Shown piece after piece: positions 8,675-63,193 of a DNA stretch of 64,000 nt (position 1 is its first letter; the number at the start of each line of letters is the position of its first letter). Origin of the DNA: a virus (taxonomy: Duplodnaviria; Heunggongvirae; Uroviricota; Caudoviricetes). Under the pieces are notes generated by a model. The model saw only the letters and a list, made by a program, of their open reading frames with translations. It was not told the origin of the DNA and made no database searches. The position numbers were made by a program, and so were the translations under genes. Location of the stretch: IMG/VR virus record IMGVR_UViG_2671180724_000008. One strand, 5' to 3'.

Positions 8675-8850
8675 TGCTCGGCTGGATGATTGCATTTTTA
8701 GCGGTTGGTTTTTTAATCGGTATTGTGGTGATGTCCAGTTGCATCAATGACTACATTAAAAGCGGTGTTATAGAACGACGCGGTCGTATTTATCGCATTG
8801 TAGAAATAACCCACACAGTGAAGGAGATTAAGGATGATCGTATTAAGTAA
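8671..8850 (+). CDS. Small membrane protein (59 aa; below track cutoff)
   Basis: ATG overlaps ligase stop; hydrophobic helix MLGWMIAFLAVGFLIGIVV; C-terminal RRGRIYRIVE shared with next small protein. Confidence 0.4.
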   Translation: MMLGWMIAFLAVGFLIGIVVMSSCINDYIKSGVIERRGRIYRIVEITHTVKEIKDDRIK

Positions 8851-9049
8851 GCGGGAGAAGGAAACGCTTCATGAAATCAGTAAGTGGCCGGAGTTCCCTG
8901 AGTACTGGAAGCCTAAAACGCGGGCTAAGTTAGAGCGGTTAGGGTTGGTTGCAAACGTTTCTGAAACGTGGTGTTCGGCCAACTACCAGTTAACTGATAA
9001 AGGGAAAGTATTGCTACAGCAATTAGTAGAATCAGGAGCGTTCAAATGA
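8834..9049 (+). CDS. Small hypothetical protein
   Basis: 71-aa ORF in a chain of overlapping small genes. Confidence 0.4.
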   Translation: MIVLSKREKETLHEISKWPEFPEYWKPKTRAKLERLGLVANVSETWCSANYQLTDKGKVLLQQLVESGAFK

Positions 9050-9198
9050 TTCCATACATCTCATTAGCTTTTATGGGTGGCTTCCTTATTGGCTTCGGCA
9101 TCTGTCGTGATTTAATTAAGCAGGAACTTAAAACCAAAACACTGTGCATCGGAAAGCGTGTGTATCGGGTAGTTCATGAAACAAAGGTGAAAAAATGA
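9046..9198 (+). CDS. Small membrane protein (50 aa; below track cutoff)
   Basis: Hydrophobic helix plus GKRVYRVVHE motif resembling the 8671 ORF. Confidence 0.35.
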   Translation: MIPYISLAFMGGFLIGFGICRDLIKQELKTKTLCIGKRVYRVVHETKVKK

Positions 9199-9485
9199 GC
9201 AATTTAACTTCTTGGGAATGGTGGTTGGCCACCTATTTCTTAGCGGCCGGAGTCGCATTCGCCTTTTACGTAGGTCAGTTAGTCGTAAAACTGTTGCTGA
9301 TTAAATTTGCTAGTCATAAACGTATCGATGATGGTCTGTGGCGTCTTGGCACCCTGGTGGAAACTCGCTACGGGCAACTTAAGGAGAACGAAACCATTAC
9401 TATCCAAGCGAAACGATTCACTGCCACCATCACAAGAACACCTAGTCGTAGAGTGGCATTGATCAAAAAAGTCACAACCGAATAA
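9195..9485 (+). CDS. Small membrane protein
   Basis: N-terminal TM helix WWLATYFLAAGVAFAFYVGQLVV. Confidence 0.45.
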   Translation: MSNLTSWEWWLATYFLAAGVAFAFYVGQLVVKLLLIKFASHKRIDDGLWRLGTLVETRYGQLKENETITIQAKRFTATITRTPSRRVALIKKVTTE

Positions 9486-10263: not shown

Positions 10264-10339
10264 GATGGTGTAGCTCAGCGGTAGAGCAGTTGGCTGTTAA
10301 CCAACTGGTCGGTGGTTCGAATCCACCCACCATCGCCAA
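10264..10339 (+). tRNA. tRNA-Asn (anticodon GUU)
   Basis: Cloverleaf by hand: acceptor GATGGTG/CACCATC, anticodon stem GTTGG/CCAAC with loop CTGTTAA, T-arm GGTGG-TTCGAAT-CCACC, 3' CCA. Confidence 0.8.
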
Positions 10340-10343
10340 TTTA

Positions 10344-10430
10344 GGGGAGTTAGTCCGTAGAGGTAGCGGTGTAGACTGTAAATCTACTGTCATTGCGACT
10401 CGGGTGGTTCGACTCCATCACTCCCCACCA
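10344..10430 (+). tRNA. tRNA-Tyr (anticodon GUA), long variable arm
   Basis: Acceptor GGGGAGT/ACTCCCC, anticodon stem GTAGA/TCTAC with loop CTGTAAA, T-loop TTCGACT, 3' CCA. Confidence 0.7.
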
Positions 10431-10434
10431 AATT

Positions 10435-10510
10435 GCCGGTTTAGCTCAGTTGGTAGAGCGCCTGCCTTGTAAGCAGGATGTCAGCGGTTCGTGTCCGTTA
10501 ACCGGCACCA
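10435..10510 (+). tRNA. tRNA-Thr (anticodon UGU)
   Basis: Acceptor GCCGGTT/AACCGGC, D-arm GCTC-AGTTGGTA-GAGC, anticodon loop CTTGTAA, T-arm AGCGG-TTCGTGT-CCGTT, 3' CCA. Confidence 0.8.
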
Positions 10511-10518
10511 ACATAATA

Positions 10519-10598
10519 TTGAGAACATTGGCGTAACGGGGTCATATCCCAATCTATGAATAAATGTTACGTTGCCGCGTGACAACCAGTGTTCTCAA
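10519..10598. repeat. Stem-enclosed element (TTGAGAACATTGG / CCAGTGTTCTCAA) with nested CGTAAC/GTTACG stem
   Basis: 13-bp inverted repeat; same CACAnnGTTGAG stem family in inverted orientation. Confidence 0.5.
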
Positions 10599-11178
10599 CA
10601 TTGTGGTGAATGCACAGGCTGATGTGCCGCAACTACAGTAGTGCGCGCTTTGCGGGGCTTGCTACAACCCTGTGTCGGAGATCAGCGCCGACCATCACAA
10701 TTTGGCTCTCTTGCAACAGCATAACGCTGAAATATGTCCAACCTGGTGCGGCCTGTTCACCCGCCGTTAGCTCCACGAAACGGAGCGCACAACAGATAAG
10801 AGAACTTCCCATATGGGGCTTGGCTTAAATGCATCGAGTTCTCTTATCGCTGTGTCACAGACAAATTTCCGACAGCCCTGTTTATCATCGGACGCAACCT
10901 AAAAGGTCGAGGCAAAGCCAGGTAATAGCGGAGGGAGTGACACAGCACACAACAGGTAAGAGCATTTGTAGAGTTCGACTCTCTACCGTGGGCTTTTTCC
11001 CGCGATGCGAGCCATAAATGCTCTTTCCGTTGTGGTGGATTCGCAGACTGATGCGATAGCTTTCTTGGATGTTAGGGAAATGCGGCCGCAAATCTTCCCT
11101 TTCGCGAGCGGTGATCGTCCGTAGTCCTAATTGGCTGCACCGTATGCCGGAGATTCAGTACCGGCCACCACAACGGCC

Positions 11179-11265
11179 GGAGAGTAGGGAGCATGGTGCT
11201 CAAGCGGTCTTGAAAACCGTCCCATTGTGCAAACGATGATGGTTCGATTCCATTACTCTCCGCCA
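11179..11265 (+). tRNA. tRNA-Ser (anticodon UGA), long variable arm
   Basis: Acceptor GGAGAGT/ACTCTCC, anticodon stem-loop GGTCTTGAAAACC as in enterobacterial tRNA-Ser(UGA), T-loop TTCGATT, 3' GCCA; D-arm atypical. Confidence 0.65.
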
Positions 11266-43642: not shown

Positions 43643-44746
43643 GTGTCACTCCTTTTGAATCGTGAGCATACGAACGGTCAGGTAACAAACGCATCGTATG
43701 CAAAAGTTATTGAGACGGTGCTTAAAAGCGGCGTGCAGGCTGATGATCGCACAGGCACTGGTACTTTAAGCACCTGCTACGTTCCCTCTTACTACATGCT
43801 TACTGGTGGGACTGTGCCGCTTATTTCTGGAAAGGCGGTAAATCTTAAGCCACTACTTGTCGAACTTGAGTGGTATCTGAAAGGCACGGGCAACATCCAA
43901 TTTCTCAAGGATAACGGCGTTAAGATTTGGGATGCATGGGCCGATGAGAATGGCGATTTGGGGCCGGTTTACGGTAAGCAGTGGCGTCGCTGGGAAGATA
44001 CCCGCATCGTGAGCCATAGTGAGTATCTGAGCAAGATCGATACGTTCCGTGAACGCGGGTACAAAGTCGAGGGATACCTGGGTATCAGTGAAGATCGCGT
44101 AGTGCTGTCCCGTGAAATCGATCAGCTACAGCGTATTGTCGATACACTGCGCACGAACCCTACCGATCGTCGCATCATGCTTAACGCATGGAACGTAGGC
44201 GAGCTTGAGGATATGAAACTGCCACCTTGCCACTTTGTCTTCTCTTTGTGGAGTCGTGAGCTTGATTTTGAAACCCGTTTAACGATGGCAACTGACATTG
44301 GTCTTCAACACAGTCGCCTCGGTTACGAGTCTATCTACACCAAGATGCTATACGATCTGGAGATGGTCGGCAGTGTTACTGAAACTGAACTGGATGAACT
44401 TGGAATCCCCAAACGCATCCTCAACTCCTGCCTCGTACAGCGTAGCGTAGACACTTTTGTTGGTATGCCATTCAATATTGCTGGTTATGGCATTCTCACT
44501 CATTTTCTCGCGAAGATTACGGGTCACATGGCCGGTGCCTTTGTGCATTTTGGCTTTGACGTGCATTTGTACAATAACCACATGGAAAGTGTGTGTGAGC
44601 TAATGAAACGACAGGCTCCAGAGCATTCAGATCCGGTCGTTATTTTCCCTCATGAATGGTCTGAGCTGGATGATTTCAAATGGGACGATATTCTGATTCT
44701 TGGCTATGACCCTCTACCGTGGATCAAGGTTCCAGTGGCGGTGTGA
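43643..44746 (+). CDS. thyA: Thymidylate synthase (ThyA) with two insertions
   Basis: Motifs DRTGTGTLS, LPPCHF, QRSVDTFVGMPFNIAGYGILT; about 100 aa longer than E. coli ThyA. Confidence 0.9.
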   Translation: MSLLLNREHTNGQVTNASYAKVIETVLKSGVQADDRTGTGTLSTCYVPSYYMLTGGTVPLISGKAVNLKPLLVELEWYLKGTGNIQFLKDNGVKIWDAWADENGDLGPVYGKQWRRWEDTRIVSHSEYLSKIDTFRERGYKVEGYLGISEDRVVLSREIDQLQRIVDTLRTNPTDRRIMLNAWNVGELEDMKLPPCHFVFSLWSRELDFETRLTMATDIGLQHSRLGYESIYTKMLYDLEMVGSVTETELDELGIPKRILNSCLVQRSVDTFVGMPFNIAGYGILTHFLAKITGHMAGAFVHFGFDVHLYNNHMESVCELMKRQAPEHSDPVVIFPHEWSELDDFKWDDILILGYDPLPWIKVPVAV

Positions 44747-53025: not shown

Positions 53026-54711
53026 ATGAATACAGCCCTTTCCATCATCGACGATGCCAGCTCAAACACGGCTATCGACTATCGTCAGGAAATGAATGTC
53101 ATCCACGAAATCGTGGCCGAGTGCGAGAAAGAGATCGCCTTCATGTATCAGGTACACGACTTCGTTTATGGCGACGAACGCCACAACATGATTAATCGCC
53201 TGCTGCGACTAAACCATCGACCAGATGAAGATCGCTCGCGTTTAAATCGAGGTTGGTTGGATAAAGTCGATCTGGAATGGGTGAAACAGAATATTTGGGC
53301 CGAGTACTGGAGGAAGGTCACGGACATGACTAACGTTTTGCTGATCATGCCAGCTTCCCGTCGAGATGAGTGGCGCGAGCAGTTTATAGAGGGCAAACAG
53401 GAAGTCATCAAAACTGACAGAACCGGCTACCAGATGAAAGTTAAAGAGTTCGTTGGTGTACCGGAGTTCAAAGCAGAAACGGTCATACCCACGATGCTTA
53501 ATTTGCTGAATGACAGGCACAAATATCTCTCTGAGCGCGTGTATGGCTTGTTTAAGGCGCTGAGTCCTGCGCACAAGACAAATAAGACAAACGGTTTCAG
53601 CGAGCGGCTGATAATCGCTGACTGCATTTCTGATTTCTGGCGGGACAGCGTTAGCGTGAACTATCGCAAAGAGGACTACATCGACGATCTGCGTGTCTTG
53701 CTTCATTTCTTCGCGCACAAAGAATTTATTACCATCAACCGCACTGCTGAGGTGCTATCAGCTGCGTATAGGGCAAACGACTGCCAGACCGGTGACTGGA
53801 TGAACGTCGATGGAAATCTGATGCGCGTGAAGATGTTCAAGAACGGCAACGTTCACTTTGAAATACATCCTGACGTGGCCTGGAAGTTGAATGAGGTGCT
53901 GGCTTACAGTATGCCTGCTGCAATCCCCGCGCCATGCCGCACTGCGCCAAAAACACGGGCACCAAAGCAGTTCGGGTTAATCCAGAAGACGATCTCCGTG
54001 CCGGTTCGCACTGCGCTTCGTGACGGGCGATTGAGCAAAGACAAAGGCGTATGGTACTTCTCTGATTCAGCTCTCCAGAAGTCGCAGGTGGAAGAGCTTG
54101 AGCGCACACTGAGCTTCATTGGCGGCGTGCAGGAGAAAAAGCACTGGCAGTTCCCGTATGACATCGGCCATACGCTAAATACGATTGTGGCTACCGGTTT
54201 AATACCGGATACAAAATCACACCAGTTCTACCCTACCCCACGCTTGATTGCTGAGTACGTTGCCAGAGCCACTGAATTGAAGCCTGGTGAGAAGCTGCTG
54301 GAGCCTCAAGCCGGACGTGGGGATCTTCTGGCCTATATTAACGCCGATCTGGAAGATGTTACCTGCATAGAAATCGCACCTCTCTTCGCTGATATCCTGC
54401 GTGGAAAAGGGTATACGAACACGATTTGCTGCGACTTCATAAAGTGGTCTGAGGACAACGCAGGTTATCAGTTCGACAAAATCGTTATGAACCCGCCGTA
54501 CTCGCTTGGTCGTCATAGAGAGCACACGATGGCTGCGCTGGGGCATCTGAAAGTCGGCGGGCGTCTTGTAGCAGTATTGCCGGGCACTGCGCCAATACTG
54601 GACTGGATGACGATGGATAATTACGTTTATGCCAGAGGGAAGTCGTTTACCAACGAGTTTGAAGACACAGGGATCACAGTCAGCGTATACGTTTTCAAAC
54701 GCGTTAAATGA
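53026..54711 (+). CDS. Two-domain protein: about 400-aa N-terminal region of unknown function fused to C-terminal N6-adenine/N4-cytosine-type DNA methyltransferase domain
   Basis: C-terminal motifs FYPTP, EPQAGRGDL (AdoMet binding) and NPPYS (catalytic). Confidence 0.7.
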   Translation: MNTALSIIDDASSNTAIDYRQEMNVIHEIVAECEKEIAFMYQVHDFVYGDERHNMINRLLRLNHRPDEDRSRLNRGWLDKVDLEWVKQNIWAEYWRKVTDMTNVLLIMPASRRDEWREQFIEGKQEVIKTDRTGYQMKVKEFVGVPEFKAETVIPTMLNLLNDRHKYLSERVYGLFKALSPAHKTNKTNGFSERLIIADCISDFWRDSVSVNYRKEDYIDDLRVLLHFFAHKEFITINRTAEVLSAAYRANDCQTGDWMNVDGNLMRVKMFKNGNVHFEIHPDVAWKLNEVLAYSMPAAIPAPCRTAPKTRAPKQFGLIQKTISVPVRTALRDGRLSKDKGVWYFSDSALQKSQVEELERTLSFIGGVQEKKHWQFPYDIGHTLNTIVATGLIPDTKSHQFYPTPRLIAEYVARATELKPGEKLLEPQAGRGDLLAYINADLEDVTCIEIAPLFADILRGKGYTNTICCDFIKWSEDNAGYQFDKIVMNPPYSLGRHREHTMAALGHLKVGGRLVAVLPGTAPILDWMTMDNYVYARGKSFTNEFEDTGITVSVYVFKRVK

Positions 54712-54772
54712 TAGGTAAATACTTACTTAATTTGTGTAAGAATGTAGTAACTAAACGATAAGAGAAAAACAC

Positions 54773-55477
54773 ATGAACAACCTCCAGTTAGAGCATTTTA
54801 ACGTCACAGGCCATTCTGATTTTCCTTTCAAGTTTACATTGAAAGGTTATGCAGAGGATGCGGTAGGCCAGATCATTATTGATAAAGGCATCGTTAAGTT
54901 TGAGGGGAATTTTGATGAATCCGCGAAAACATTCATAGACTTCGTTGCCAAACGTTGGAGCGAGCAATGGAAAGACCTGGAAAAGCGCGCCAATGAGTTT
55001 GATCGGTTCATGGATGCAATGGATACAGCAAAAGAGGCTCTGGCTGCCGGGACTCCGTTAGATCTGGAGTCACTTTTCAACGGCGAAGTGGCCTCTGCAA
55101 TGTTCGCCACCATGTTCGCGGGTGAGTTCGTCCGCAGCGGTGCCAAAAACTACCTTGAGCTGGATTACAACGTCCCTGCAATTGGCGATTTCGTCGTTAC
55201 CATCCAACGCAAAGAAGGTAAGACGCCAGGTGAACGCGTCGCAGAGCTTGAGGCCGTTGTGGATCAGCGTAACGGAGAGTGTGACCGTTTGATCAACGAG
55301 CTTCATGCACTTCGGGAAGAAAGAATATGCGCGGGTAGCAATACACGTAATGCAGCGGATATCTACTTCCAGTTAGTTGAGGAATGCCAGATTCCACCAG
55401 GTGGCTCTCTTGTCGATTACGTAAGACATTTAATGGCGGAAGTTAGCTCCAGCCATAAAGATGGTGAGGTGCGCTGA
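54773..55477 (+). CDS. Hypothetical protein
   Basis: 234-aa ORF. Confidence 0.5.
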   Translation: MNNLQLEHFNVTGHSDFPFKFTLKGYAEDAVGQIIIDKGIVKFEGNFDESAKTFIDFVAKRWSEQWKDLEKRANEFDRFMDAMDTAKEALAAGTPLDLESLFNGEVASAMFATMFAGEFVRSGAKNYLELDYNVPAIGDFVVTIQRKEGKTPGERVAELEAVVDQRNGECDRLINELHALREERICAGSNTRNAADIYFQLVEECQIPPGGSLVDYVRHLMAEVSSSHKDGEVR

Positions 55478-55857
55478 TGTTTGGCATTGACGCACAGCGT
55501 ATAGCCGCTTTTGCAAAAAGCCCTCTTGATAATCCCTTGTCTCGTAGTGAGCAAATGGAGCTGGCAAGGCTTTTTCTTCATATTCAAAAACAGTCAGACG
55601 TTTTCAATAACATGCCTGATCAACCTATTCTGGATGGTCACATCCAGATGGTCATTAACAGTCATGAGAAAGGCTGGGCTGCAATCGTCCCCAGCACAAT
55701 TACATACAAGTTGGCGAAAGAGGTTCAAGAGTTTCGAAAAGCCAGTGTCGAATCGGAGTCTACCAAAGCCGCAATAAACACTCTTATTCGCATGGGATTC
55801 ACATGGAACGGTGGAGCCTACTGGCAAGCACCTCACCCCATTTTATCCGGCAATTAG
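55477..55857 (+). CDS. Hypothetical protein
   Basis: 126-aa ORF coupled to upstream gene. Confidence 0.45.
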   Translation: MFGIDAQRIAAFAKSPLDNPLSRSEQMELARLFLHIQKQSDVFNNMPDQPILDGHIQMVINSHEKGWAAIVPSTITYKLAKEVQEFRKASVESESTKAAINTLIRMGFTWNGGAYWQAPHPILSGN

Positions 55858-55976
55858 ACGCTACAAATCCTTCTGCGTGAATAAATAAAGGCCATAAGTT
55901 GTGGCCTTAAATAAATTGTTTTCTGCCTTTTCTTATTTGTGAAAATAACCACAACTAGAAAACAACGGAGTTAAGA

Positions 55977-56618
55977 ATGTCTAGTATTTCCGAAGCTCAT
56001 ATGTTCGCCGCTGGCGCTCATGGTGGCGTTGGTCAGAAAAGAAAATATACCGGCGAAGACTACATCAACCACCCGGTTGCTGTCCGAGAGATTGTTGCAT
56101 TGCATGACGGAACCGTGGAGATGCAAATCGCGGCGCTTCTGCATGATGTGGTCGAAGACACCCATGTAACCATAGAGATGGTTCGTGATCACTTCGGTGA
56201 GCGCGTAGCTGAAATGGTTCAGGCTCTGACCAACATTGCAAGGCCAGAAGACGGCAATCGAATACAGCGTTTCATCATCAATGTCCGGGAGCTGGAGCAA
56301 AATCTCGACATGCAGACGCGCATGATCAAGCTGGCTGACCTGCTCGACAATACCTCTTCTATCGTGAGTCGCGATCCCGAGTTTTCAGCTGTCTACCTCG
56401 CAGAGAAAGAACTGATGCTGGACGTACTCTTTCACGGCAAAGAGATTGGTGCCAACGCTGATGTTGTCGAGTACATGGAGAGGAAAGGTATAGAACACCC
56501 GTTGCTATTAAGTGCAATGGCGAAAGTCACTGAAGGTATTGCGCTTCTGAAACCGGTACACATCAAACGTTATGAAAAACACAAATCGCTGATCTGGAGC
56601 GCGTGGGAGGCTGCATGA
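55977..56618 (+). CDS. HD-domain protein resembling the (p)ppGpp hydrolase domain of SpoT/RelA (small alarmone hydrolase-like)
   Basis: AHGGVGQKRKYTGEDYINHPVAV and AALLHDVVEDT match the SpoT/Mesh1 HD motifs as recalled. Confidence 0.6.
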   Translation: MSSISEAHMFAAGAHGGVGQKRKYTGEDYINHPVAVREIVALHDGTVEMQIAALLHDVVEDTHVTIEMVRDHFGERVAEMVQALTNIARPEDGNRIQRFIINVRELEQNLDMQTRMIKLADLLDNTSSIVSRDPEFSAVYLAEKELMLDVLFHGKEIGANADVVEYMERKGIEHPLLLSAMAKVTEGIALLKPVHIKRYEKHKSLIWSAWEAA

Positions 56619-57157
56619 AGGTCGAAAAAATAGATGTTCTTTCCTTTGTGCTGACGGATCTGGAACGCCTCGATCCGGTTCGAGTGATGATTGAAAACTA
56701 CGAACCTGGTAAGGGAAGAATCACCATCACCTGCTACGGAAAAGCCTGGACAGCGGCTTGGTTTGCTATGGGCGGTGATGATGTGCAGACGTTCATTAAG
56801 CGAGTTAGCAACGACTATCTAATCGACAATTTCGACCCTCAACTGCTAAGCACGGTCGACGATGACAACGATGCAAATCTGCTTTTCGTGAAGTCAGAAA
56901 TCATAAAGTTACGAAGAGAGAGAGAAATCGACGCCGTACAGGCTCGCGAAATGTGGGACGAGGCGGAAAACGCTGATGACGTAAAAGAAAGCTGCTGTTG
57001 TTTCGGCGTCGGTAACAAACTGCTGAATCTCTTTGGTGATGATCCGTGGTATGCCGACTGGCCAACTGTACCAAACCCGAAATACCAGTATCTGGAACGC
57101 ATTGTGAACGCGGTACGTGAAGGGCTGAAAGAGTTAGACAAGTTAGAGGCATTGTAA
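56603..57157 (+). CDS. Hypothetical protein
   Basis: 184-aa ORF. Confidence 0.45.
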   Translation: MGGCMKVEKIDVLSFVLTDLERLDPVRVMIENYEPGKGRITITCYGKAWTAAWFAMGGDDVQTFIKRVSNDYLIDNFDPQLLSTVDDDNDANLLFVKSEIIKLRREREIDAVQAREMWDEAENADDVKESCCCFGVGNKLLNLFGDDPWYADWPTVPNPKYQYLERIVNAVREGLKELDKLEAL

Positions 57158-57612
57158 TGAGAGAGAAAATCAAGAACCCGGTCGTCGTATTGTATAAACG
57201 GGAAACCAGCGATTCTTATGCGGTATCCATCACTGATGGAAGCCAGAACATGCACGATGGCCTGCTAATGGCTTCAGTGTCTCCCGATGAGGCAGACAAC
57301 TCTTTTGCCGTTTTCGCTATGGTTGGTTACTACATGGCTGCCGAAATTGAGAAGTTGCGGGCGCAGAGAGATGCATTAGCGGCGGAGAATGCAGCCCTGA
57401 AAGAATCTGAGCGAGCATTCGATGAGATGTGTGCCGAGGAACACGGAGATAATTGGGTTAGCGAATTAACGGAGACTCCAGCCACCGATGCTTTTCTGGC
57501 TGAAGTACGTGCGCAGGGCGTGGAGATGTTTGCTGAGTGCGCATACACATTTGAACATCATGATCACGCAGTAGCTTTTGCCGCTGAGCTTCGTAAAGGA
57601 AATAAACAGTGA
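57157..57612 (+). CDS. Hypothetical protein
   Basis: 151-aa ORF. Confidence 0.45.
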   Translation: MREKIKNPVVVLYKRETSDSYAVSITDGSQNMHDGLLMASVSPDEADNSFAVFAMVGYYMAAEIEKLRAQRDALAAENAALKESERAFDEMCAEEHGDNWVSELTETPATDAFLAEVRAQGVEMFAECAYTFEHHDHAVAFAAELRKGNKQ

Positions 57613-58145
57613 ATGAGATTTACTACCTGACGTTACGTGAACGTTATTTACCAAAACCAGCGCCTAAATGCTCTGTTTGTGGCGAGGAAATGTCAATACA
57701 GCGCATATCTGGTGCACATGTTGTTTATGCCTGTTCCGGTGAGGGTGATGACGGATATTTTAAGATAGGGCGTACTTTTGCAGACGAACATTATGAAAAA
57801 TCACGCGTAACAGTAGTTGATGATTGTGATCCCGATGTGATTGCACTGCTGGACGAACTGGATAAAAGACAGCAACACATCCGACGTCTTGAGCAGGAGA
57901 ACGTAGAGATGGCCCTAACGCTTGAGAAACTGCGTGTTGAGCTGGAGACCGTTAAACAGCGGGAAAAGGATCTGTTTATGGAAAATGTTCGACTTAAGTC
58001 AGGTATAGCAGGTCTGATACACCTCGGTATTCGATATGCGGATGTCGAAGTCATGAAAATAGCTGGAGATGCCCAGCTTTCTACTCCATGCACTGACAGC
58101 ATCATAAACAGCATTGCAGCAGGCATTCGCATTACAGCAGAGTGA
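57609..58145 (+). CDS. Hypothetical protein with N-terminal zinc-ribbon and coiled coil
   Basis: CSVCGEE...YACSGEG motif. Confidence 0.45.
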   Translation: MNEIYYLTLRERYLPKPAPKCSVCGEEMSIQRISGAHVVYACSGEGDDGYFKIGRTFADEHYEKSRVTVVDDCDPDVIALLDELDKRQQHIRRLEQENVEMALTLEKLRVELETVKQREKDLFMENVRLKSGIAGLIHLGIRYADVEVMKIAGDAQLSTPCTDSIINSIAAGIRITAE

Positions 58146-58348
58146 GTGATATGGATAAAAATACCCCTGCTTACTGGAGTTTATCACTTGATACCGAATG
58201 CCCAAAATGCGGTCACAATTTCGATCTGCTTTGTGATGCTGATTTTTGGGAGTTTTCGGGAGCAAAACAGGCGTGTGAAGAAATAGAAGGTTACGAAACA
58301 TGCTGTCCAGAATGCAACCATGAATTTAAAACTGATTTTGTGTATTGA
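58142..58348 (+). CDS. Small zinc-ribbon protein
   Basis: CPKCGH ... CCPECNH four-Cys pattern. Confidence 0.4.
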   Translation: MSDMDKNTPAYWSLSLDTECPKCGHNFDLLCDADFWEFSGAKQACEEIEGYETCCPECNHEFKTDFVY

Positions 58349-58358
58349 AGCATAGCAC

Positions 58359-58880
58359 ATGACCGCCTTTACCAAAGAACAACTAATTGATCATATTAAT
58401 GATCGCAAAGATGTCCGTCAGAGAATGTTGGATACCGCGACGGTTTCTTCTGGATTCCGAGAATATCTTGAAAGAGAACTTGCCACCGATCAGATTGCTC
58501 TGGCGTCGCTGGAAGCTGAACCTGTCCTGTATCAGTCCTGCACTCGCCCCACCTGGAATAGCGGTGTTCCGTGGACGGAATGGAAAGAACGTAGTCGTGA
58601 GGGCTACGAAGACGATTTGCGCTTTACAGACACGCCTGATCATGCCGGTTGGATAAACAAATGTCGAAAACTATATACCACTCCGCCAGCGCCACTGCTA
58701 CCTGATGGACTGGTTAAAGCAGTGCGCTTCTATGAACAGGTTAAGCGTGAAAATCCGCCAGTCGAAACCGGAGCATGGAAAGACGCGGTTGACTGGGTGC
58801 TTAAAGAGGCTTTCCAGGCTGTATCAGTGTTGGAAAGCAGCAGAGAACACGAAGTTATTAGCCAGCAGGAGAAGGCATGA
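58359..58880 (+). CDS. Hypothetical protein, paralog family member A
   Basis: N-terminus MTAFTKEQLIDH shared with the 59075 ORF. Confidence 0.45.
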   Translation: MTAFTKEQLIDHINDRKDVRQRMLDTATVSSGFREYLERELATDQIALASLEAEPVLYQSCTRPTWNSGVPWTEWKERSREGYEDDLRFTDTPDHAGWINKCRKLYTTPPAPLLPDGLVKAVRFYEQVKRENPPVETGAWKDAVDWVLKEAFQAVSVLESSREHEVISQQEKA

Positions 58881-62092: not shown

Positions 62093-63193
62093 TCACACTG
62101 CGCGGAATGCGATTTCGCCAGGTATTACTTCACCTTGCCAATACATTTGGGCAGCAACGCGATCTGCGAGGTCACGATAAATAGCCGTAAATTCGCTATC
62201 TGGACGACTAATAACGGTTGGTGTTCCGTTATCCAGATCCTCACGAAGAGAGATATGAAGTGGCATTTGGCCTAACAACTGCGTGTTGTATTTCTCGGCC
62301 AGTTTCTGTGCGCCACCGGTGCCAAAAATTGGCTCGTGATGACCGCAGTTACTGCAAATATGCACACTCATGTTTTCGACGATACCTAGTACCGGCACTT
62401 CGACTTTTTCGAACATCACAATGCCTTTCTTCGCATCGATCAGCGCGATGTCTTGCGGCGTAGTTACCACAACCGCACCAGTTACAGGAATGTTCTGCGC
62501 CAGCGTCAATTGAATATCACCAGTGCCCGGCGGCATATCGAGAACGAGATAGTCCAGATCAGGCCACAGTGTTTCCTGCAACATCTGCATCAGCGCCTTG
62601 CTGGCCATCGGTCCACGCCACACCATTGCATTGTCGTCGGTGACCAGATAACCAATAGAGTTGGTTGCCAGGCCATGAGACATGATAGGTGCCATGTGAG
62701 TACCGTCCGGTGAGGTTGGACGTTGGTTTTCCGCACCCAGCATGGTTGGAATTGATGGACCGTAGATATCGGCATCCAAAATACCAACTTTCGCACCTTC
62801 AGCAGCCAACGCCAGTGCCAAGTTTACTGCTGTGGACGATTTGCCTACACCGCCCTTGCCTGAGCTGACGGCGATGATGTTCTTAACGCCATTAATGCCT
62901 GGTTGGTTTTTGACGCGCTTAAGCGTGGCAATGTTGTACGACAGCTTCCAGTCGATAGCCTTTGCGCCAGTGATACGGAGCAGATCACCACTACATTGCT
63001 CTTTCAGGTCTTCAAAAGGCTTATTCCACACGAAAGGCATGATTAGTTCGACATGCAGTGTGTCATCCATCAACGCAACATGGTGTAACGCTTTAAGCGT
63101 AGTCAGGTTGTGCTTCAGGGTTGGGTGCTGAAAATTAGCCAGCGTACCGGCTACCATTGCTCTCAGGGCATCCGGCGATTTGGACTCGCTCAT
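62093..63193 (-). CDS. apbC: Fe-S cluster carrier ATPase Mrp/ApbC (host chromosomal)
   Basis: Near-identical over most of its length to enterobacterial Mrp as recalled (SGKGGVGKSSTAVNLA, CxxC motif); divergent from metG as in E. coli. Confidence 0.95.
   Translation of the reverse strand: MSESKSPDALRAMVAGTLANFQHPTLKHNLTTLKALHHVALMDDTLHVELIMPFVWNKPFEDLKEQCSGDLLRITGAKAIDWKLSYNIATLKRVKNQPGINGVKNIIAVSSGKGGVGKSSTAVNLALALAAEGAKVGILDADIYGPSIPTMLGAENQRPTSPDGTHMAPIMSHGLATNSIGYLVTDDNAMVWRGPMASKALMQMLQETLWPDLDYLVLDMPPGTGDIQLTLAQNIPVTGAVVVTTPQDIALIDAKKGIVMFEKVEVPVLGIVENMSVHICSNCGHHEPIFGTGGAQKLAEKYNTQLLGQMPLHISLREDLDNGTPTVISRPDSEFTAIYRDLADRVAAQMYWQGEVIPGEIAFRAV

Follow-up and report, generated by a model that had tools for sequence, protein, structure and literature searches.

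The window, a 64,000-nt stretch of caudoviral DNA, encodes on its plus strand a 213-aa protein that carries motifs of alarmone hydrolases. This raises two questions: whether the protein has the make-up of a free-standing hydrolase of the RSH type, and, if so, what such an enzyme does for the element that carries it. The preliminary description had proposed a stand-alone alarmone hydrolase-like HD protein that might either reprogram the stringent response of the host or counter alarmone-based anti-phage signalling. Here, we identify the gene as a small alarmone hydrolase (SAH) gene of the PaSpo type (Table 1) and weigh its possible roles.

Table 1. Features of the SAH locus in window coordinates.
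Feature	Position	Strand	Basis or remark
Gene for DUF4942 + N6-adenine-methyltransferase-like protein, 561 aa	53026-54711	+	phrog_6263; PADLOC mad2 and MTase_II in residues 394-523
Putative GC-rich hairpin AAGGCCA-N7-TGGCCTT, between upstream gene and SAH gene	55888..55908	.	terminator-like on the - strand only
Shine-Dalgarno sequence GGAG, 6 nt 5' of ATG	55967..55970	+	read from sequence
SAH gene, PaSpo-type, RSH HD hydrolase domain only, 213 aa	55977..56618	+	ORF list (ATG start, TGA ending at 56618); HD_4, TIGR00691, SSU5_099, AlphaFold2, Foldseek
Codon of H32, putative metal ligand	56070..56072	+	aligned with Rel H53; invariant in 33 sequences; HP of B. subtilis Rel and SpoT
Codons of H56-D57-V-V-E60-D61, HD dyad and ED motif	56142..56159	+	Rel H77-D78 and E81-D82; LHDVVEDT of Rel/SpoT
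Codons of D121-L-L-D-N125	56337..56351	+	Rel D144 and N148 (IKLAD..N motif); IKLADRLHN of Rel; both invariant
Gene of unassigned function, 180 aa	56615..57157	+	C-terminal part of phrog_3451; start overlaps SAH stop as ATGA

Domain content, active site, and predicted fold

The two motifs on which the preliminary description was based, HPVAV (residues 32–36) and AALLHDVVEDT (residues 52–62), are both found in the translated ORF. The resemblance goes beyond chance because the HD_4, TIGR00691, and phrog_990 profiles all match the protein. The HMM search that had been suggested as a check on the HD_4 and RelA_SpoT hydrolase assignment returned Pfam HD_4 (PF13328; E = 1.2e-18) at residues 8–135, where the score of 67.7 bits exceeds the gathering score of 27.2, and NCBIfam TIGR00691 (spoT_relA) with E = 1.4e-24. 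The latter match spans only model positions 1–123 of 687, which represent the hydrolase part, and scores 86 bits against a cut-off of 499 bits. The generic Pfam HD family (PF01966) is also above its cut-off (26.9 bits vs. 22), and phrog_990, annotated as "metal-dependent phosphohydrolase," matches residues 4–209 (E = 2.4e-55). Searching the 213-aa protein against Pfam at E <= 1 yielded no RelA_SpoT synthetase (PF04607), TGS, or ACT domain; together with the restriction of the TIGR00691 match to the N-terminal part, this agrees with the earlier reading of a hydrolase that lacks a synthetase domain.

The window protein has 1,549 homologues at E <= 1e-5, and we based the family alignment on 33 relatives at 43%–98% identity. 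Invariant in this alignment are R22, Y24, T25, Y29, H32, P33, H56, E60, D61, T62, R98, K118, D121, N125, and E143, and D57 is kept in at least 90% of the sequences. A profile alignment with Bacillus subtilis Rel, from which the Rel residue numbering is derived, pairs R22, H32, H56-D57, E60-D61, D121, and N125 with R44, H53, H77-D78, E81-D82, D144, and N148, respectively. From what is known of RelSeq and MESH1, we take H32, H56, D57, and D121 to be the metal-binding tetrad of RSH hydrolases and E60-D61 to be their catalytic ED pair. The loss of catalytic His/Asp residues, named in the preliminary description as a finding that would speak against an alarmone hydrolase, is not what the alignment reveals: the whole Rel hydrolase set is retained.

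From this family alignment, AlphaFold2 predicted an all-alpha structure of 12 helices (pLDDT 96.1, pTM 0.92). The best 40 Foldseek matches in the PDB, all with E <= 0.001, are exclusively MESH1, bacterial SAHs, and the hydrolase domains of Rel/SpoT; the lowest E value is 2.9e-7, and TM scores normalised to the target are 0.73–0.77 against the single-domain enzymes. Likewise, all matches of phmmer against the PDB sequences are SAHs or hydrolase domains of RSH enzymes, namely Acinetobacter baumannii SpoT, Rel from several species, human and fly MESH1, Lmo0812, RelH, the Pseudomonas aeruginosa SAH, and a (p)ppApp hydrolase. Compared to relatives of 165–190 aa, the window protein carries an insertion around residues 155–175 and an extra C-terminal helix, both of which are common to the enterobacterial phage-plasmid clade. 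In sequence, profile matches, predicted fold, and catalytic residues, the protein equals the single-domain RSH hydrolases, as its first designation as a stand-alone enzyme had it, and the gene has the computationally checkable features of both the RSH HD hydrolase domain and the single-domain SAHs.

The top fold matches are complexes of human MESH1 with PAPS and NADPH, and the literature stresses the versatility of RSH hydrolase chemistry. Both observations would suit an enzyme that acts on something other than an alarmone, either another 3'-phosphorylated metabolite (NADPH or PAPS, as for MESH1) or a defence signalling nucleotide. We regard such a substrate as very improbable because the ortholog described below rescues cells from five toxSAS in vivo, which shows that it acts on toxSAS products.

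Orthology to SSU5 PaSpo and a probable role in counter-defence

The window protein and SSU5_099 (YP_006906731.1) of Salmonella phage SSU5 are both 213 aa long and share 187 of 213 residues without a gap (88% identity). A tblastn search with the window protein gives just one match in SSU5, and the two genes are syntenic, each lying in the same place behind the DUF4942 methyltransferase gene and the "ea" genes. Since SSU5 encodes no RSH-type HD protein other than SSU5_099, we identify the latter with PaSpo, the SAH of Jimmy et al. (2020). With gapless identity of 88% and synteny as the proxy, the sequence comparison makes the window gene an ortholog of the representative of the PaSpo subfamily. 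The dN/dS ratio between the two alleles is 0.18 overall (0.10 for residues 1–140 and 0.26 for residues 141–213), which places the gene under purifying selection. A decayed or inactive gene is ruled out for the window allele by this ratio and by the presence of all catalytic residues. Existing names give little away: RefSeq lists the gene, whose copies are 99.5%–99.7% identical in DNA, as "HD domain-containing protein," and the SSU5 records use "metal-dependent phosphohydrolase" and [quoted passage not shown]

The PaSpo family, its occurrence in phages, and its activity against toxSAS are already published. In Escherichia coli, SSU5 PaSpo neutralised all five toxSAS tested, i.e., CapRel, PhRel2, FaRel2, PhRel, and FaRel (PMC7229694, Table 1; Jimmy et al. 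2020 PNAS). Co-expression of PaSpo is now routine for producing CapRel-SJ46 (PMC9712102), FaRel2 (bioRxiv 2024.07.05.602228), and PhRel2 (bioRxiv 2021.04.30.441581). Aminoacylation of tRNA that was pyrophosphorylated by FaRel2 is restored in vitro by MESH1 and ATfaRel, the two hydrolases with which these assays were done, PaSpo not being among them. The idea that phage SAHs serve in counter-defence was put forward by Jimmy et al. (PMC7229694).

Our best explanation is that the window gene encodes an active PaSpo-type SAH, an accessory function of the phage-plasmid that provides broad counter-defence against toxSAS by destroying their products; we hold this to be probable. Hydrolysis would be carried out by an HD metal centre formed by H32, H56, D57, and D121, which binds Mn2+ in characterised relatives, and by the E60-D61 pair. 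The enzyme would strip (p)ppGpp and (p)ppApp of their 3'-pyrophosphate and probably do the same at the CCA ends of tRNAs that were pyrophosphorylated by toxic small alarmone synthetases. The targets would be broad and include toxSAS effectors such as CapRel, FaRel, FaRel2, and PhRel, because the toxin's product is destroyed and the toxin itself is not bound. As an outcome, the element could replicate in hosts that are armed with toxSAS abortive-infection systems. The parts of this explanation differ in their footing. The window allele is presumably enzymatically active, and the in vivo rescue from tRNA-targeting toxSAS classes suggests that pyrophosphorylated tRNA is a substrate of PaSpo. Counter-defence against toxSAS is most likely what the SAH contributes in its native element, although in the literature searched we found no experiment in which a phage-encoded SAH overcomes toxSAS defence in a real infection.

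The neutralisation of FaRel, a producer of (pp)pApp, by SSU5 PaSpo in vivo (PMC7229694) would also suit a role in lysogenic conversion, in which the SAH of a resident phage-plasmid shields its host from the (p)ppApp toxins of competitors (T6SS effectors of the Tas1 type or MuF toxins), similar to Aph1. The structure of a (p)ppApp hydrolase (7smg) is detectable as a homologue, and the gene resides on a stably inherited plasmid prophage of clinical Escherichia, Salmonella, and Enterobacter isolates. However, this dedicated (p)ppApp hydrolase is a much weaker match (E = 2e-6) than Rel, SpoT, and MESH1 (E ~ 1e-13), and we think it quite unlikely that such immunity is what the gene is for.

Phage-plasmid context and variable presence of the SAH gene

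Over 1.8 kb, the locus is 98%–98.7% identical to non-mobilizable plasmids of approximately 110 kb from E. coli, E. albertii, and E. marmotae (pG749_2, pECOH89) and 87% identical to phage SSU5. The window belongs to an E. coli phage-plasmid of the SSU5 type that resembles pG749_2 and pECOH89. Hence, the initial placement of the gene "on a phage" holds in that the element is of phage type and needs amending in that it is an SSU5-type phage-plasmid and no classical phage. The RefSeq annotation of pG749_2 combines phage structural genes (capsid, portal, terminase, tail) with genes for plasmid maintenance and replication (RepB, ParB, DnaE, primase/helicase, RecA), nucleotide metabolism (nrdAB, thymidylate synthase, dfrA51), four tRNA genes, and captured apbC and metG.

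Several of these genes are noteworthy cargo in themselves. The window has the same tRNA genes as pG749_2, Asn-GTT, Tyr-GTA, Thr-TGT, and Ser-TGA, which lie at 10264–11265 (+) of the window. A host-like apbC, which encodes an iron-sulfur cluster carrier, is located at 62093–63193 (-), and metG, which encodes methionyl-tRNA synthetase and is full-length by comparison with pG749_2, extends from about 63350 past the window end; the corresponding stretch of pG749_2 is L004 25496–28787. Both are unusual for a phage-like element, and they stand out beside a gene that may repair tRNA ends. The trimethoprim-resistant dihydrofolate reductase that RefSeq names DfrA51 is placed at 8840–9316 of the pG749_2 sequence (L004), about 44200–44700 of the window, inside the nucleotide-metabolism module with nrdAB and thymidylate synthase; most probably, a DHFR of phage type has here been given the name of a resistance gene. 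The tRNA-Thr is one of two tRNAs targeted by the toxSAS FaRel2 (bioRxiv 2024.07.05.602228), and a link between the phage-plasmid's own tRNA-Thr and the SAH is speculative.

The SAH gene is part of a same-strand run of small early genes (Ead/Ea22-, Eaa-, and Eae-like) located 3' of the DUF4942 DNA methyltransferase gene. Early gene runs of this "ea" type are the usual place for accessory genes. The methyltransferase is likely an orphan enzyme with an anti-restriction function. The hairpin 5' of the SAH gene is conserved in SSU5 and in phage-plasmid Cyrano, the latter of which lacks the SAH gene, and a consensus scan found no promoter-like site on the plus strand directly upstream of the SAH gene.

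The SAH stop overlaps the start of the downstream gene (ATGA), and an SAH of another subfamily (ATfaRel, PbcSpo) does act as an antitoxin (PMC7229694). By analogy with ATfaRel, the window SAH could be the type IV antitoxin of a toxSAS toxin–antitoxin module encoded by the phage-plasmid itself, a scenario to which we assign hardly any probability. Eight flanking ORFs (53026–58880), among them two upstream and three downstream of the SAH gene, have no RelA_SpoT or nucleotidyltransferase match in Pfam, PHROGs, NCBIfam, or PADLOC, and the RefSeq (PGAP) annotation of the whole near-identical plasmid pG749_2 contains no RelA/SpoT-type gene; the search for a synthetase covered these flanking ORFs and the annotation of this close relative. 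The homologue in Klebsiella phage-plasmids adjoins no toxSAS either, and the gene of the type found at 56615–57157 is not beside it and occurs alone elsewhere. Moreover, the SSU5 SAH was treated as a stand-alone enzyme by Jimmy et al. (PMC7229694). We therefore reject a toxSAS partner within the flanking ORFs and the pG749_2 annotation and, as no toxSAS is adjacent, view the SAH gene as an orphan accessory gene of the early "ea" region.

The downstream gene has a counterpart in SSU5, SSU5_100, which accompanies the SAH gene there with the same ATGA overlap, and it is missing together with the SAH gene in Cyrano. As it is non-adjacent to the SAH homologue in Klebsiella phage-plasmids and occurs without an SAH gene in phage EC.W1-9, we rejected it as an obligate SAH partner. 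Its 180-aa product carries a CCCFGVG motif and matches positions 105–281 of phrog_3451, the one family to which it could be assigned, and the product of the gene at 54773–55477 (+) matches positions 13–101 of the same family. It follows from these split matches that some phages seem to encode a fusion of both genes and that the "ea" region is highly mosaic.

The SAH gene is a variable accessory gene of SSU5-type phage-plasmids. At a coverage of at least 80%, we found it in 122 PLSDB plasmids from Escherichia, Enterobacter, Salmonella, and Citrobacter, and 292 PLSDB plasmids match at least a portion of the surrounding 1.8 kb. Among complete E. coli genomes, 36 of 5,426 carry the gene, every time on plasmids. 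Cyrano, CMS-2020a, and PhiR41_1, which are E. coli phage-plasmids with 97% identity elsewhere, do not have it. In Cyrano, the sequence is retained through the upstream gene and the hairpin into the spacer, to about position 55951, followed by a 62%-identical homologue of the window gene at 57157; this junction implies that both the SAH gene and the gene at 56615–57157 are missing there. The homologue of Klebsiella phage-plasmids is 52% identical and located immediately upstream of the DUF4942 methyltransferase gene.

Decayed and chimeric SAH versions circulate on related elements of approximately 110 kb. In one E. coli protein (P0009; 231 aa, 63% identity), HG replaces the HD dyad. Another E. 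coli protein, annotated as "AAA family ATPase" (P0010), joins an AAA_28 P-loop N-terminus to the SAH from E60 on and consequently lacks H32, H56, and D57. Three Enterobacter proteins (P0012–P0014) have the N-terminus of an upstream-type gene fused to SAH residues from about 75, and a further SAH (P0011) is shortened and ends at residue 139. In some E. coli phage-plasmids of the SSU5 type, the SAH gene is reduced to its initial 43 nt, which are 100% identical; examples are pGMI17-003_2 (L003, NZ_CP031136.1; 2501–2543) as well as H127 and H140–H142. This stub is directly followed by apbC and metG, which implies that a deletion took the rest of the SAH gene along with the entire downstream "ea" block. 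With several relatives decayed or chimeric and many related phage-plasmids devoid of the gene, the SAH gene is dispensable.

Patchy presence of this kind fits an accessory gene in an arms race, i.e., counter-defence. It is less suited to a gene of core metabolism, which matters for another reading, in which the main substrate is host (p)ppGpp and a lowered alarmone level keeps the host permissive without the involvement of any defence system. Transcription, translation, and nucleotide synthesis would then be kept open for lytic growth or plasmid replication. In line with such manipulation of the stringent response, the nearest relatives in sequence and fold are the (p)ppGpp hydrolase domains of SpoT and Rel and MESH1, and the element's own nrdAB, thymidylate synthase, and DHFR are consistent with metabolic reprogramming. 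The same role was proposed for phage SAHs by the authors of other phage genomes (PMC12846349). Given how unevenly the gene is distributed among near-identical phage-plasmids, we consider this a possibility of lesser weight, though it is compatible with counter-defence and does not exclude it.

Implications and comparison with known systems

Alarmone hydrolases carried by phages may plausibly serve as a general counter-measure against abortive-infection systems of the toxSAS kind, such as CapRel. In the laboratory, detoxification of toxSAS toxins with the SSU5 enzyme is already standard practice; what we add is a close ortholog of PaSpo and its population context, i.e., its status as a variable accessory gene and the 52%-identical Klebsiella homologue. 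When SSU5-group phage-plasmids were screened with DefenseFinder in a 2025 survey, few anti-defence systems were reported and the SAH gene went unmentioned, so surveys of this sort may miss it. Phage-plasmids that naturally carry or lack the SAH gene are ready material to test the native role.

The SAH could also be at work throughout the carrier state, where it would continuously erase the output of host toxSAS/CapRel as well as incoming (p)ppApp toxins and, with the four tRNAs and metG, make up a translation-protection toolkit. We deem this unlikely. Were it true, a class of host immunity would be disarmed, which would leave carriers more open to infection by unrelated phages but immune to interbacterial alarmone toxins.

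Among known systems, the hydrolase domain of the long RSH proteins SpoT and Rel is the best match by sequence in the PDB (A. baumannii SpoT 7qps, E = 2e-13; E = 3e-25 in the profile search). The HP, LHDVVEDT, and IKLAD..N motifs of these enzymes are conserved in the window protein, whereas their synthetase, TGS, ACT, and other regulatory domains are absent from it. MESH1 and the bacterial SAHs from P. aeruginosa (6yvc), Corynebacterium glutamicum (RelH, 7qod), and Leptospira (7qoe) agree with the window protein in the all-alpha HD fold (Foldseek probability 1.00) as well as in the metal and catalytic motifs, but they share only 21%–28% identity with it, and the window protein is approximately 35 residues longer. 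ATfaRel, a member of another SAH subfamily, is likewise a single-domain RSH hydrolase that neutralises a toxSAS via the toxin's product. Yet ATfaRel is encoded in a three-gene toxin–antitoxin locus beside its toxSAS, and the window gene stands without a toxSAS neighbour.

The closest known system is SSU5 PaSpo. The two alleles differ by 26 substitutions, 19 of which are within residues 141–213, and their hosts are Salmonella for SSU5 and E. coli for the window. The gene upstream differs as well, and SSU5 diverges from the window 5' of about position 55870. The two enzymes have the same catalytic residues and are encoded on the same type of replicon, that of the SSU5 phage-plasmid group.
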